14,213 nucleotides of DNA. It comes from a virus. The stretch's first letter is position 1, and each line of letters opens with the position of its first letter. The position numbers and the translations under genes were made by a program. The notes under the pieces are model-generated. The model was not told the DNA's origin, ran no database searches, and saw nothing but the letters and a program-made list of their open reading frames with translations. This document shows positions 8,125 through 12,263 of the stretch, one piece after another. The DNA lies in the UHGV virus genome UHGV-0136963; one strand, 5' to 3'.

Positions 8125-9513
8125 ATGGCTACTTGGCAAGGATCAAATGGCGGATTGTTGGCTGGTATCGGCGGCGTCAACTCAAACGCTCCGAGCGTAA
8201 ATGACATCGGCAACACGCTTCAGCTTATCAGGCAGAACAATGATATTGAGCGTTCAGGCGCTAACAATGTTGGGCTGACAGCTTTGCAAGGTCTTTCTGG
8301 TATTGCGGGTGTTTTTCAGCAGGAAAAGCAGGCTCAGCGGCAGAAAGAATTTCAGCAGGCATACGCTAATGCTTATGCGTCTGGTGATCGCGGTGCTTTG
8401 CGTCAGTTGGCTACTCAATATCCAGACCAGATTGAATCTGTTCGTAAAGGCATGGGATTCATTGATGAAGACCAGCGCAATTCTATCGGCACCTTAGCGG
8501 CTGGCGCCCGCCTTGCATCATCGTCTCCAGAAGCAATGCAATCATGGCTGCAAAACAACGCCAAGGAACTGACTCGCGTCGGTGTTGACCCTAATAACGT
8601 TGCTCAGATGTATCAGCAGAACCCTTCAGGATTTGGTGAGTTTGTTGATCACCTTGGAATGGCTGCTCTTGGTCCGATTGATTACTTCAATGTTCAGGAC
8701 AAGATGGCTGGTCGTGAGATTGATCGCGGAAAACTTGCAGAGACAATCCGCAGCAATCAGGCTGGCGAGGCGCTAACAGCACGAGGCCAGAACATCACGA
8801 TGCGCGGTCAGGACTTATCTGCTTCTACTGCGCGACGCGGGCAGGATTTGGCAATGCAGCGAGCGTCAACAAGAGGAACCGCTGGGAATGATGAGCGTAC
8901 AGTTCAGTTATCAGATGGCAGAACTGTAACGGTAGGCGGTAAACTTCACGGCGCTGGTGCTAATGCGTTCTACGAAGGCATCGACAACGAGGGGAATATG
9001 GTTCGCGTTCCTGCCAGTTCAATCGCAGCGCCTGCAACATCGTCTGCATCAGCACAAAACTATGCCATGAAGAAGGATATCGACGCGATCGCAAATGCAG
9101 ACGCTTCTGCTCTCGATTTCATGACAGGAATGACAGGCGGTGCAGGTAATCCAGCAATTGGTGCTGATGTTCGCAGCCGATTAACAGGAAAAGAGCAGCG
9201 CCAGTTATATAACTCAGCACAACGTATTCAGGGCAGAATGCAGAATCAGGGTGTGGCGGCAGCAAGGGACATGGGTGCCAGTGGTATTAACACCGTTGCA
9301 GAAGCGAAGATGTATTTTCAGGGGATGCCGCAGGTTGACTATTCAAGCCCGGAGGCTATGCAGCAGTCGATTCGTGAAATTCAGGAATACACCAACAATT
9401 ACAACCAACAATATAACGTTAATGTTGGTAAATCTCAGCGGAAGCAATCTCAACCTGCACAGGTATCACAGCCAGCAGCCAGCAGTAACTTTTCTTCACT
9501 ATGGGGTGATTAA
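8125..9513 (+). CDS. Ejection (internal virion) protein, homologue of P22 gene 20
   Basis: 462 aa (P22 gp20 about 471 aa), between the gp7 and gp16 homologues. AGGGG RBS before the ATG. Q/N/G-rich, low-complexity composition typical of P22-like ejection proteins. Confidence 0.85.
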
Positions 9514-11792
9514 TGGCTAAAGCATGGAAAGATGTTATCGCCTCTCCACAGTATCAGGCGTTAGCACCAGAACAAAAAGCGCAGGCTCAGGAGCAATACT
9601 TCAATGAAGTCGTGGCCCCGCAAGCCGGAGAAAATGCAGAGCAGGCAAAACAAGCGTTTTACTCTGCTTACCCTAGAGGTCTGCTAGAGAAGGGTAATAT
9701 TGACATTCACAATCGGCCTGTTGTTAAAAACTCTGATGGCAGCATTAGCACTGTGCGGAGCATGTCTACCAATATAGATGGTAGAGAGGTGCTGATTCCT
9801 ACCGTTAGTGATGATGGTCGCATTATGTCTGATGATGAAGCTATTGATAACTTCATGAGGACGGGAAAGCATCTTGGTATGTTCGACAATCCTGACGATG
9901 CCACTGCATATGCGGAGAGTCTGCACAACCAGCAAGCTGATGAATACCTCCCTAGGAAGAATCAAGCTACACAACAGCCTGTACAGCAAAGTACACAGGC
10001 AGCGCCACAGCAGCAAGGAGGTTTCATTTCCGACCTTGGCAATGCCGCGGCTGAAACTGGTCGCGGACTGGTGCAGGCTGGCGTGAACGTGGCAAACATA
10101 CCTGCATCAGTTGCCGATGCTGTAACAAGTGCGGCTGCATGGGCTGGCGGTAAACTCGGCATTGGCGATGGTACATATCAACCAGCGCCACGAGTAACAA
10201 CGCAGGGATTAGAGCAGGACTTTGGCCTTCAGCAAGGCGCGCTGACTCCACAAACGACAGAGGGCAGGGTGTTTGCTGAAGCATTGCCTTACCTCACTCC
10301 TGCTGGCGTTGAGAGAGCGGCGGTACAGGCACCAACACTTGCTGGTCGAATTGCTCAGGGGGCAACACGACTTCTCGCAGAAAACGCAGTTGGATCACTT
10401 GCTGCAAATAGTGCGAAAGATGATGCGGAAGCCCTCGCCACCGATTTAGGCGTTGGTGTGCTGGCTGGCGGTGCTATTAACGCTGCCGGAAGTGGATTAG
10501 GTGCTGCTTATCGTGGCGTTCGTGGTGCTATTGCGCCAGAAGCGCAGCAGGCTATCAGATTTGCAGAGCGTGAAGGTGTTCCTCTGCACACCACAGACCT
10601 GTTACAACCCACTTCCCGCGTCGGAAAAATGGCGCAGACTACAGCAGAAAATATCCCTCTTGCTGGCACAAGCGGAATGAGAGCAACGCAACAGGAAGCG
10701 AGAAGCCAGCTGGTGCAGAGATTTGCCGATAAATTCGGTGAGTATGATCCAGCGGTTGTTATTGACAGCCTTAAAGCGAAAACATCAGGAATTCGTCGTG
10801 CCGCCGGTAATCGACTGGAGCAGGTTCAGAATGCTATGGCCGGAGTAAACATTCAGCCTGCGCGAGCAATTCAGCAGATTGATACAGAAATATCTAACCT
10901 GCAGAAGCTTGGTAAGGTTGCTGATAACGAGACTATTTCAAAACTTCAGTCATATCGTGATGAGCTTGTTCGCAATGCTGGCCCTGATGGTCCTGTAAAT
11001 CTGGATTTGAAGCAATTAAGCGACCTGCGCAGCCAGTTCAGAATGGACGTGAAGGGTGAACGACCAGTGTTACCAAACCGTTCCGATGCCGCCATTCAGC
11101 GCGTTTACAAGGCAATGACTGACGATATCAATGGTGCCATTGGTCAGAATCTTGGCAACGATACTCTCCGTAAATATCAGCAGGCCAATGCCGTCTACGC
11201 TGACGAAGCGGCGAAACTAAAGAATACCAGGCTGAAGAATGTTCTCATGAAAGGCGACCTGACGCCGGAAGTTGTCAACAACATGCTATTCAGCAAGAAC
11301 AAATCGGAAATTAAGACGCTGTATAACTCAGTTGGTCGTGTTGGCAGGGCGCAAATGCGCAATGGCATCATTGGAAAGGCGATGGAGAAATCAGGCGGAT
11401 CCCCTGACCAGTTCCTTCGACAGCTTAACATCCTGCAAAACCAGACTGGCATCACATTTAAAGGTCAGGACGCTGCTTATCTGAAAGGATTGAAAAATTA
11501 CCTTCAGTCCACGCAGCAGGCTGCAAAAGCGGCAGTAACAACACCAACAGGGCAGCAAACCATCCCGTTCATTATCGGATATGGGACAGCAATGAACCCT
11601 GCGACAACTGGCGCAGCGGTAAGCTACGGACTTCTTACTCGCGCCTATGAGAGCGAGCCATTCAGAAATGCAATGCTCCGAATGGCAAACACCCCACGCG
11701 GATCAACAGCGTTCGAGAAAGCCATGCAGCAGGCACAAAAGGCCATTAACGCCCTGACTCAGGGTACCAAGTCTGATGCGCTGTCAGAATAG
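9513..11792 (+). CDS. Ejection (DNA-transfer) protein, homologue of P22 gene 16, with about 150 extra residues
   Basis: 759 aa. The central and C-terminal parts (…NIPASVADAVTSAAAWAGGKLGIGDGTYQPAPR…GALTPQTTEGR…IPLAGTSGMRATQQEAR…TDDINGAIGQ…KGDLTPEVVNNMLFSKNKSE…GSPDQFLRQLNILQNQTGITFKG…) match P22 gp16 as recalled. P22 gp16 is about 609 aa from memory. The start overlaps the gp20 stop (TAATG). Confidence 0.9.
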   Translation: MAKAWKDVIASPQYQALAPEQKAQAQEQYFNEVVAPQAGENAEQAKQAFYSAYPRGLLEKGNIDIHNRPVVKNSDGSISTVRSMSTNIDGREVLIPTVSDDGRIMSDDEAIDNFMRTGKHLGMFDNPDDATAYAESLHNQQADEYLPRKNQATQQPVQQSTQAAPQQQGGFISDLGNAAAETGRGLVQAGVNVANIPASVADAVTSAAAWAGGKLGIGDGTYQPAPRVTTQGLEQDFGLQQGALTPQTTEGRVFAEALPYLTPAGVERAAVQAPTLAGRIAQGATRLLAENAVGSLAANSAKDDAEALATDLGVGVLAGGAINAAGSGLGAAYRGVRGAIAPEAQQAIRFAEREGVPLHTTDLLQPTSRVGKMAQTTAENIPLAGTSGMRATQQEARSQLVQRFADKFGEYDPAVVIDSLKAKTSGIRRAAGNRLEQVQNAMAGVNIQPARAIQQIDTEISNLQKLGKVADNETISKLQSYRDELVRNAGPDGPVNLDLKQLSDLRSQFRMDVKGERPVLPNRSDAAIQRVYKAMTDDINGAIGQNLGNDTLRKYQQANAVYADEAAKLKNTRLKNVLMKGDLTPEVVNNMLFSKNKSEIKTLYNSVGRVGRAQMRNGIIGKAMEKSGGSPDQFLRQLNILQNQTGITFKGQDAAYLKGLKNYLQSTQQAAKAAVTTPTGQQTIPFIIGYGTAMNPATTGAAVSYGLLTRAYESEPFRNAMLRMANTPRGSTAFEKAMQQAQKAINALTQGTKSDALSE

Positions 11793-11881: not shown

Positions 11882-12145
11882 TTAACTGCTGTCTTTTTTA
11901 TATAGCTCCTTGAGCGTATCAAAGACAATTTTCTTAACCATATCAGATTGTTGTTCTGCCATACGCTCTGCATCGTCAATGTAAACTGATGCAGAGCTTT
12001 GTTTAGCCAATGATTCTTCAATCGCTGCAATTATCTCTGAGTTCAGCGACCTGTTATTCATTTTCGCGCGCTGTTTAATTTTCGCGTGGAGTTCATGCGG
12101 AAGTCTCAAGTGAAACTGCGCCTCGTCGTATTTGCTGTACATCAT
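11882..12145 (-). CDS. mnt: Mnt-like ribbon-helix-helix transcriptional repressor (Arc/Mnt family)
   Basis: The 87-aa product MMYSKYDEAQFHLRLPHELHAKIKQRAKMNNRSLNSEIIAAIEESLAKQSSASVYIDDAERMAEQQSDMVKKIVFDTLKELYKKDSS aligns along its length with P22 Mnt as recalled (…HFNFRMPMEVREKLKFRAEANGRSMNSELLQIVQDAL…NDAERLADEQSELVKKMVFDTLKDLYKKTT). I chose the ATGATG start at 12145/12142 because GGTGAGG lies 5-6 nt upstream; the ORF-track start at 12175 would add 10 residues with no RBS. Confidence 0.9.
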   Translation of the reverse strand: MMYSKYDEAQFHLRLPHELHAKIKQRAKMNNRSLNSEIIAAIEESLAKQSSASVYIDDAERMAEQQSDMVKKIVFDTLKELYKKDSS

Positions 12146-12263
12146 TGATGCCTCACCAGTTGGGTGGAATGGCATCGTAACCTACTGGATAAATACTCAA
12201 TAGTACCATTTCGGTATGCAATCACATCATGGTTGCATCATATCATTCGTCTGGAGCAATGAA
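12146..12263. promoter_or_regulatory. Divergent intergenic region between mnt and the tailspike gene; candidate mnt promoter and operator
   Basis: 118-bp non-coding gap between divergently oriented genes. It contains the inverted repeat ATGCAA (12216-12221) / TTGCAT (12233-12238) with an 11-bp spacer, each arm reading as a TTGCAT -35-like hexamer on one strand. On the minus strand TGgTACTAT is an extended -10-like element about 50 nt upstream of the mnt start. Also present: CCAGT (12156-12160) / ACTGG (12184-12188), and TACT-N4-AGTA (12194-12205). No experimental support. Confidence 0.35.

Follow-up and report, generated by a model that had tools for sequence, protein, structure and literature searches.

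A domain inserted in frame into the Sf6-type gp16 ejection protein of a P22/Sf6-like prophage represents an apparently undescribed domain family

Of the components of short-tailed phages, ejection proteins are the least understood, and the accessory domains that they carry show what a phage needs at entry. The virus genome UHGV-0136963, analyzed here as a stretch of 14,213 nucleotides (nt) that is referred to as the window, raises a question of this kind. It contains a gp16-family DNA ejection protein gene whose product of 759 amino acids (aa) is considerably longer than the 609-aa gp16 of P22, and it may be asked what the additional sequence is, where it comes from and what it could do during infection. 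Both lengths, as given in a first-pass annotation of this DNA (the P22 value as an approximate figure), were confirmed. Length by itself is unremarkable, because published gp16 proteins already range from 609 aa in P22 through 665 aa in Sf6 and 719 aa in CUS-3 to 722 aa in HK620. The closest relative of the window protein is Sf6 gp13 (665 aa), and alignment with it places the extra sequence as an in-frame internal insertion behind an ordinary leader, not as an N-terminal extension. The difference of 759 versus 665 aa corresponds to an insert of ~98 aa that replaces 8 residues, together with four extra linker residues; gp16 mosaicism of the usual kind accounts for what remains of the ~150-aa excess over P22. 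The gene and its parts are as follows.

9513 to 11792, plus strand: gene for a gp16-family DNA ejection protein of the Sf6 gp13 type with an inserted domain, 759 aa, assigned from the translation of the open reading frame (ORF), identity to Sf6 gp13, the profile phrog_770 and gp7-gp20-gp16-tailspike synteny.
9513 to 9674, plus strand: Sf6-type gp16 leader, aa 1-54, a predicted long helix; identical to Sf6 gp13 aa 1-54 except for S51A, with helices at residues 2-10, 12-15 and 19-52 predicted by AlphaFold2 (AF2) at a predicted local distance difference test score (pLDDT) of 85-95.
9675 to 9968, plus strand: insertion relative to Sf6 gp13, aa 55-152 (RGLLEKGNIDIH...LPRKNQA), in place of LPFVQSVE of Sf6, delimited by protein and DNA alignments with Sf6 and Bas106.
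9678 to 9950, plus strand: conserved core of an unannotated domain, aa 56-146 (GLLEKGNIDIHNRPVVKNSDGSISTVRSMS...AESLHNQQADEYL), defined by family alignments, AF2, profile matches and the proportions of nonsynonymous and synonymous differences (pN/pS).
9969 to 10022, plus strand: Q-rich linker, aa 153-170, four residues longer than that of Sf6 in the alignment and predicted to be disordered (AF2 pLDDT <55 from about residue 150).
10023 to 11792, plus strand: gp16 body of the Sf6 type, aa 171-759, with 96-97% nt identity to Sf6 and E. coli prophage genes.

The protein matches phrog_770 'DNA transfer protein' with E=6.9e-234, is 97% identical to Sf6 gp13 outside the insertion, the shared body being aligned from about residue 171, and is 33% identical to P22 gp16, with which it is alignable from the GRGLV motif to the C-terminus. 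The first-pass annotation had taken the first ~170 residues as a novel N-terminal segment and had placed the onset of gp16 similarity at about residue 175; this was mistaken, as aa 1-54 form a canonical leader and the novelty lies internally, at aa 55-152. No flanking direct repeats resembling a target site were found around the insertion. P22 gp16 itself has a different and shorter N-terminus (MKVTANGKTFNFPDGTS...), which was considered as a degenerate copy of the inserted module and rejected, the hhalign probability being 0.06%.

Structural prediction indicates that the module is an autonomous folded domain of ~91 aa. Modeled alone with AF2, it reaches a mean pLDDT of 84.6, and in a model of residues 1-259 the block means are 83-97 over residues 51-140, with residues ~150-259 mostly below 50. 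The predicted fold consists of a beta-hairpin-rich N-terminal half followed by a helix-strand-helix arrangement. Autonomy is also apparent from the placement of the module at the N-terminus, in the middle or at the C-terminus of its carriers, and from solo ORFs of ~100-125 aa. The earlier proposal of a folded module within an AT-richer stretch was therefore borne out: the segment GNIDIHNRP...AESLH belongs to this discrete predicted fold, and its GC content is 45.2%, versus 51.7% in the gene body. Since GC at third codon positions differs little (42.9 versus 45.3%), the AT-richness stems mainly from amino-acid composition; the module is mildly acidic, with a mean net charge of -3.4. The leader helix is predicted at a pLDDT of 85-95 although few aligned sequences cover it, and it may pack against the module to make one structural unit, an arrangement that would fit the co-transfer of both as a 503-nt block described below.

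The module is far more conserved than the proteins that carry it. Its family consensus reads GLxExGNIDLxxRPVVKNxDGSISTVRSMSxNxDGxEVLIPTVSDDGRIMSDxEAIxxYxKTGKHLGxFDTPxxATxYAxxLHxxQAxxY. Among 56 prophage proteins from many phyla, the residues R68, P69, N73, D75, G76, S79, T80, V81, R82, E92, P96, D101, G102, A110, G118, G122, F124, H138 and Q141 are invariant, and H120 is near-invariant across the family alignments. Homologues reach E-values of 1e-30 to 1e-60, so that the module is not a chance sequence, and copies from different phyla are 55-76% identical. When the window copy was compared with those of Aeromonas, Proteus, Salmonella and Klebsiella phages and of Pseudomonas, Bradyrhizobium, Acidobacteriota and Desulfovibrio genomes, pS was 0.78-0.97, which is saturated, versus a pN of 0.08-0.29. 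With synonymous sites saturated, the high identity is not due to recent transfer. Strong purifying selection on the plus frame also led us to dismiss the minus-strand ORFs that lie over the module (9684-10016 and 9707-9928). Three gp16 homologues of cultured phages, all with the module near the N-terminus, illustrate the contrast with the carriers: module identity to the window protein is 100% in Escherichia phage CurroJimenez_Bas106 (hereafter Bas106), 85% in Proteus phage vB_BPM-V3 and 72% in Aeromonas phage 4_4512, whereas whole-protein identity is 42%, 55% and 29%, respectively, and the Proteus and Aeromonas leaders are short and different. Occupying the gp16 position, these three proteins bear no annotation beyond 'DNA transfer protein' or 'hypothetical protein'. 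For the gp16 proteins of P22-like phages, identities of only 22-26% have been published. A constraint so much stronger than that on the carriers (72% versus 29% when the Escherichia and Aeromonas gp16 proteins are compared) implies that the module has a definite ligand or activity that can be tested.

An 808-aa carrier (P0129) holds a full module at about aa 144-237 and then a partial copy at about aa 255-315, which keeps only the C-terminal half (VLVDGKHYVVPSIGEDGRQLSVNEAIAELQRTGKHFGTYKS...) and is without the GNIDL...STVRS half; the domain may, on this sequence pattern, be made of two sub-modules.

The family to which the module belongs is large and its carriers are diverse. A profile search of 1.84 billion cluster representatives returned 5348 matches, 1956 of them below 1e-30, in carriers of 107-3607 aa with the module N-terminal, in the middle or C-terminal. 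A word-indexed search gave 667 matches, and the 120 listed were all 91-175 aa long, mostly 62-74% identical and for the most part apparently solo ORFs. Besides the gp16-position proteins of the cultured phages, the module was found at about aa 250-340 of a 937-aa internal protein of the epsilon15-like phage SPN1S, where it fills a gap that PHROG profiles leave between the blocks they match, at the very C-terminal end of the 'IVP-C-like' (T7 gp15-like) protein in Citrovirus phages, and in Rhizobium phages. Fold matches in BFVD include proteins named large polyvalent protein, tape measure protein and SLT transglycosylase. After masking of the module, 161 carriers fell into 41 single-linkage clusters; 30 carriers were homologues of the gp16 body, two of which have the module C-terminal to the gp16-like body. 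In these two, the IMG/VR contigs L121 and L122, aa ~71-633 of a 1028-aa ORF align to aa 237-732 of the window protein and the module lies at about aa 715. Their C-terminal-side module implies that fusion to gp16-type bodies has taken place at both ends independently.

The hosts are almost entirely diderm. Eighty loci from GTDB genomes belong to Gamma-, Alpha- and Betaproteobacteria, Desulfovibrionales, Acidobacteriota, Verrucomicrobiota, Planctomycetota, Cyanobacteria and Myxococcota, with only three exceptions, all metagenome-assembled genomes, labelled Clostridia, Actinomycetota or Peribacteria; no phage of a Gram-positive host was matched among 50,697 phage records. Solo genes lie between the large terminase and portal genes in SU10-like contigs, just after a P22-type portal gene, or upstream of a T7-type portal gene among sugar-nucleotide (NeuB) genes. 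With few exceptions, members of the family are either parts of proteins that exit the virion together with the DNA or solo ORFs in phage structural gene regions.

Solo copies have no conserved partner genes: the neighbors of 70 aa and ~120 aa in two contigs are unrelated. On two unrelated metagenomic phage contigs (L006, 10001-11430; L175, 6068-9220; L176), a solo module stands in or beside a cluster of NeuB, CMP-sugar transferase-like, epimerase/dehydratase and DegT aminotransferase genes upstream of the portal gene. On another contig (L177, 6854-8312), a solo module ORF of 103 aa begins 26 nt before the end of a preceding 390-aa ORF in the tail/ejection block, which could point to a split fusion, to a frameshift or to an error of assembly rather than to a true solo gene.

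Searches of annotated collections did not assign the module to any described family. Scans of the module and 50 family members against Pfam, NCBIfam and PHROG gave nothing meaningful, with weak matches to DUF3110 (best E 0.025), Ntox35 and SPOR; a PDB sequence search with the module returned no match; no significant fold match to it was found; and it matched none of the large polyvalent protein domains (LPDs) at E<=1, the comparison covering those LPDs that have a Pfam model. The motif strings GNIDL..., GSISTVRS and PTVSDDG gave irrelevant matches or none in the searchable literature library. An intein or Hint identity was ruled out, as the Hint motifs (nucleophile, His-Asn) and fold are absent, and identities with LysM, SPOR, PG_binding_1 or SH3b were rejected for want of sequence or fold similarity. 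The window protein is, by these comparisons, a known type of mosaic ejection protein with an apparently undescribed domain family.

Within E. coli the module is a rare addition to a common gene. DNA matching the leader is present in 656 of 5426 complete genomes and module DNA in 13, always at >=99.7% identity, so that the module is missing from ~98% of the genomes with the gp16 leader. The first-pass annotation had allowed that P22-like gp16 proteins might carry this region routinely, which these counts and those from phages (23 of 50,697 records, HK620 and CUS-3 not being among them) show not to be the case. In nine of the 13 module-positive genomes the full 2280-nt gene is present at 96-97% identity. 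At least 80% of the gene is covered in 198 E. coli genomes; below those nine, the examples listed are all at 85-86% coverage and without the module, corresponding to the 1998-nt Sf6-type gene. The 90%-identity cluster that holds the window protein has 2252 members, and among the 15 members listed, 12 are 665 aa and two are 759 aa long. The same leader, module and linker are joined to a different body, in proteins of 828-830 aa, in E. coli H6 (at least one genome) and in the cultured phage Bas106, whose gene agrees with that of the window over nt 1-503 (99.4% identity) and departs from it thereafter. The 5' ~500 nt, made up of leader, module and linker, therefore behave as one exchange unit, which is found on at least two distinct gp16 bodies. 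E. coli therefore holds natural matched pairs of Sf6-type gp16 genes with and without the module that are ~96% identical elsewhere, and Bas106, as a member of the BASEL collection, is a cultured carrier open to direct genetics. A copy in E. coli MSHS 472 (L012; NZ_CP041302.1, 1444905-1453225) is decaying: its module-bearing gp16 is annotated as a pseudogene fragment, and the prophage is cut just upstream by an IS21-family element (IS100kyp IstB).

What the module does was approached through the domains with which it is combined. The only recurrent recognizable partners are peptidoglycan-active and come from ~12 Pfam families: SLT, Phage_lysozyme2, Phage_lysozyme, Lysozyme_like, GH108, Glucosaminidase, VgrG3_C, Transglycosylas, M23, M15_3, VanY and Polysacc_deac_1. 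The pattern recurs in two independent carrier sets, with nine lysin matches among 44 metagenomic carriers (four SLT, two VgrG3-like C-terminal, and one each of Glucosaminidase, VanY and Transglycosylas) and 16 among 56 prophage carriers (five SLT, four Phage_lysozyme2, two Polysacc_deac_1, and one each of M23, GH108, Phage_lysozyme, M15_3 and Lysozyme_like). In one carrier (L040) a Phage_lysozyme2 domain at 110-225 directly precedes the module (at ~267), and in another (P0121) the segment immediately after the module looks GH24-like, on a by-eye reading only. Polyvalent carriers are a minority, about six of 100 proteins scanned, with the domains LPD22, LPD23, LPD37, LPD38, ddrB-ParB and InPase; an example of 2382 aa (P0171) has the module at aa 9-113, ddrB-ParB at 660-780 and LPD38 at 1968-2132.

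From these data, we tentatively propose that the module is an accessory, envelope-directed module that most likely binds peptidoglycan, a reading that we regard as possible and somewhat short of probable, this grade being for the whole scheme, with its established steps, such as the recombination of the domain into an Sf6-type gp16, included. By recombination, the horizontally exchanged domain of ~91 aa has come to lie in frame at a permissive site in the flexible N-terminal region of an Sf6-type gp16, behind the 54-aa helical leader and ahead of the Q-rich linker; presumably it is packaged and ejected as part of that protein. Work on P22 has shown that gp16 enters and can diffuse in the periplasm, docks onto the gp20 tube and builds the channel section spanning the cytoplasmic membrane. 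By homology, the gp16 body of the window protein (aa 171-759) would form the cytoplasmic-membrane section of the ejection channel, and the module would, if P22 gp16 is a guide, be delivered to the periplasm or the inner-membrane region. There it would bind, or possibly modify, an invariant component of the diderm envelope, with peptidoglycan as the best candidate, and would help the ejected proteins to dock in the wall or to cross it. Sf6 gp16, which has no such domain, is built into virions and supports infection, and the module is therefore an accessory addition outside the core channel machinery. An envelope role is favored over a cytoplasmic effector because the partners are peptidoglycan-degrading and the hosts almost all diderm, and the 55-76% cross-phylum identity at saturated synonymous sites suggests a very conserved ligand.

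Several observations weigh against a wall-directed role. The module has neither sequence nor fold similarity to any known wall-binding or wall-degrading domain, most carriers are without a recognizable lysin domain, and where a lysin is present it can be far from the module, several proteins (L083 and L056 among those with a distant lysin) having hundreds of residues between the two. The label 'endolysin' that PHROG gives to carriers of the epsilon15-like family without a Pfam lysin domain was not counted as evidence. Some carriers are polyvalent and include domains whose expected site of action is the cytoplasm (ddrB-ParB and InPase, for example). Solo copies possess neither a signal peptide nor any obvious part for capsid targeting, which makes a route to the periplasm hard to see for them. 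Podovirus ejection proteins often carry lysins anyway. The lysin association may on that account reflect carrier type only, which is the main confounder.

The strongest rival, which we consider unlikely although it deserves to be weighed first, is that the module is an injected effector or anti-defence module delivered with gp16, binding or inhibiting a conserved host protein or defence component, with the solo copies expressed from the phage genome. The first-pass annotation had raised this idea, and the part of it that stood is the presence of an added, independently folding module that also occurs in polyvalent proteins; nothing links the module to anti-defence. The domain is present in bona fide polyvalent proteins (with LPD22, LPD23, LPD37, LPD38, ddrB-ParB and InPase), and solo forms of LPD-type domains beside structural genes are likely early-invasion helpers according to Iyer et al. 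(2017; PMC5512222). The scattered, accessory occurrence of the module (13 of 656 genomes) is what arms-race cargo typically shows, and the mild acidity of the domain (mean net charge -3.4) would also suit an effector. These points are set against the small share of polyvalent contexts (~6 of 100 proteins scanned) and the lack of similarity to known anti-defence proteins or to Pfam LPD models. Moreover, arms-race effectors usually diversify, whereas the module is 55-76% identical across phyla under strong purifying selection, and its absence from the Gram-positive-host phages searched is unexpected for a conserved cytoplasmic target.

A role inside the virion is less likely still: as an assembly or encapsidation module, the domain would dock its carrier (or, in the solo form, just itself) to something inside the capsid, for instance the portal or the packaged DNA, and so ensure packaging or ordered exit. 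The solo genes between terminase and portal or beside the portal, the storage of all carriers in the head or tail, and the freely varying position of the module within them agree with such a role. Sf6 gp16, however, gets into virions without the domain, so that gp16 packaging is independent of it, and the carrier phages span at least three Pfam portal types (P22_portal, SU10_portal and the T7 Head-tail_con) with other virion proteins very divergent. A module that is 55-76% identical beside gp16 bodies that are 22-26% identical is a poor fit to co-evolution with a phage partner, and an acidic domain is unlikely to bind DNA.

Rather doubtful as well, and slightly more so than encapsidation, is the view that the module is not a binding module but a novel small enzyme, perhaps a metal-dependent hydrolase or a modifier of a wall or envelope substrate. 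Bifunctional lysins with two catalytic domains are common. The number of invariant polar residues is unusually high for 91 aa (R68, N73, D75, S79, T80, R82, E92, D101, H138 and Q141, with H120 near-invariant), and Iyer et al. (PMC5512222) take such conservation patterns as a sign of an enzyme; many of the invariant residues (G, P, D-G, N-x-D-G) are nevertheless typical of beta-turns and may be structural. The module has no fold or motif match to any enzyme class, and the partial second copy in P0129, without the N-terminal half, fits a binding repeat better. Finally, a translocation or refolding aid, in which a fast-folding domain refolds beyond the narrow ejection channel and prevents back-sliding in the manner of a Brownian ratchet with no specific ligand, is very improbable, for although the domain occurs in every class of protein threaded out of the virion and at any chain position, and strong sequence constraint could mirror folding needs, the solo ORFs and the many conserved surface-type polar residues are left unexplained and most ejection proteins manage without the domain.

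The envelope-directed reading can be placed beside several known systems. With Sf6 gp13 and P22 gp16 of the Lederbergvirus group the window protein shares the gene position and, by homology, presumably the channel role; the likeness to Sf6 gp13 is closest, with a leader identical but for one residue and a body 97% identical, and the 98-aa insertion at aa 55-152 sets the window gp16 apart from both Sf6 and P22. As with the LPD domains of polyvalent proteins (PMC5512222), the module is a promiscuous small domain in large proteins co-delivered with DNA that is also found solo beside structural genes, but most of its carriers are podovirus ejection proteins and are not MuF-anchored, and it matches no LPD model present in Pfam. 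The window protein itself is a gp16 body plus one added domain, and the defining feature of polyvalent proteins, at least two disparate activities, is found in other carriers such as P0171. Ejectosome mosaicism, including domain swapping, has been described in the literature, and T7-type ejection proteins provide an example of an accessory domain that moves between proteins and positions (the N-terminal transglycosylase of gp16 and the K1E gp35 lysozyme); those domains, unlike the module, are recognizable lysins, to which it has no detectable relation. Wall-binding modules such as LysM, SPOR, PG_binding_1 and SH3b resemble it in being small, autonomous, sometimes repeated, variable in position and recurrently fused to many peptidoglycan hydrolase families, a likeness for which carrier type is again a confounder.

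An extra domain in gp16 would not surprise a specialist; what is noteworthy is an unannotated, cross-phylum family of more than 5000 clusters, the plus/minus pairs in E. coli and a cultured carrier in Bas106. With at least 5348 cluster representatives and no Pfam, NCBIfam, PHROGs or PDB entry, the family deserves a domain model, which could also replace the varying gene names with an accurate one. A broader proposal, also held tentatively and as something less than probable, is that the module founds an undescribed superfamily with a new fold, specific to ejected proteins of phages of diderm bacteria and conserved through the one invariant envelope or cell component that it recognizes or acts on. 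If true, this would be a new class of wall- or host-targeting module attached to gp16-like, gp15-like, tape-measure and polyvalent proteins.

The remainder of the window corresponds to the late (virion) region of a P22/Sf6-like prophage, in which the 3' part of the portal gene is followed by the genes for scaffold, coat, gp4, gp10, an Sf6-type needle with knob, gp14, gp7, gp20 and gp16, a minus-strand mnt-like gene, and a tailspike with the P22 head-binding domain. In the gp7-gp20-gp16 block, which follows gp26 and gp14, the 759-aa ORF comes third and precedes the tailspike gene, an order shared with Sf6 and P22 and established from Pfam Inj_translocase in the upstream ORF, the Sf6-type needle knob and the Head_binding domain of the tailspike downstream. 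In RefSeq, the gene at 9513-11792 is variously named 'lytic transglycosylase domain-containing protein', 'DNA transfer protein', 'P22-gp16 family phage DNA ejection protein' and 'hypothetical protein'. Pfam and NCBIfam scans found no SLT or other lysin domain in the 759-aa protein, and its only transglycosylase-type match is to phrog_29864 'transglycosylase', at aa 257-478; the 'transglycosylase' name may have been passed on between annotations with no evidence behind it. The gap of 424 nt between gp16 and the tailspike is AT-rich and contains a 97-aa ORF (11882-12175, minus strand) with matches to Arc (E=1e-14) and Repressor_Mnt (E=4e-14), which corresponds to an mnt-like repressor of the immI region; the gap is too small for the arc, ant or sieA genes that P22 has at that position. 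The gene directly upstream of gp16 is the following.

8125 to 9513, plus strand: gp20 homologue, 462 aa, an ejection protein and functional partner of gp16, assigned from Pfam Inj_translocase (E=8.7e-78).

The ATG of the gp16 gene overlaps the TAA of this gp20 homologue (TAATG) and is preceded by a Shine-Dalgarno-like GGGGTG motif, and the arrangement is the same in Sf6. The gp20 homologue is only 62-67% identical to Sf6 gp12, P22 gp20 and the Bas106 and H6 proteins, with the N-terminal Inj_translocase domain conserved. The locus is accordingly a mosaic, in which an Sf6-type gp16 body stands beside a gp20 with a non-Sf6 C-terminal half, and this combination deserves attention because published hybrids require gp16 and gp20 to be compatible for function.

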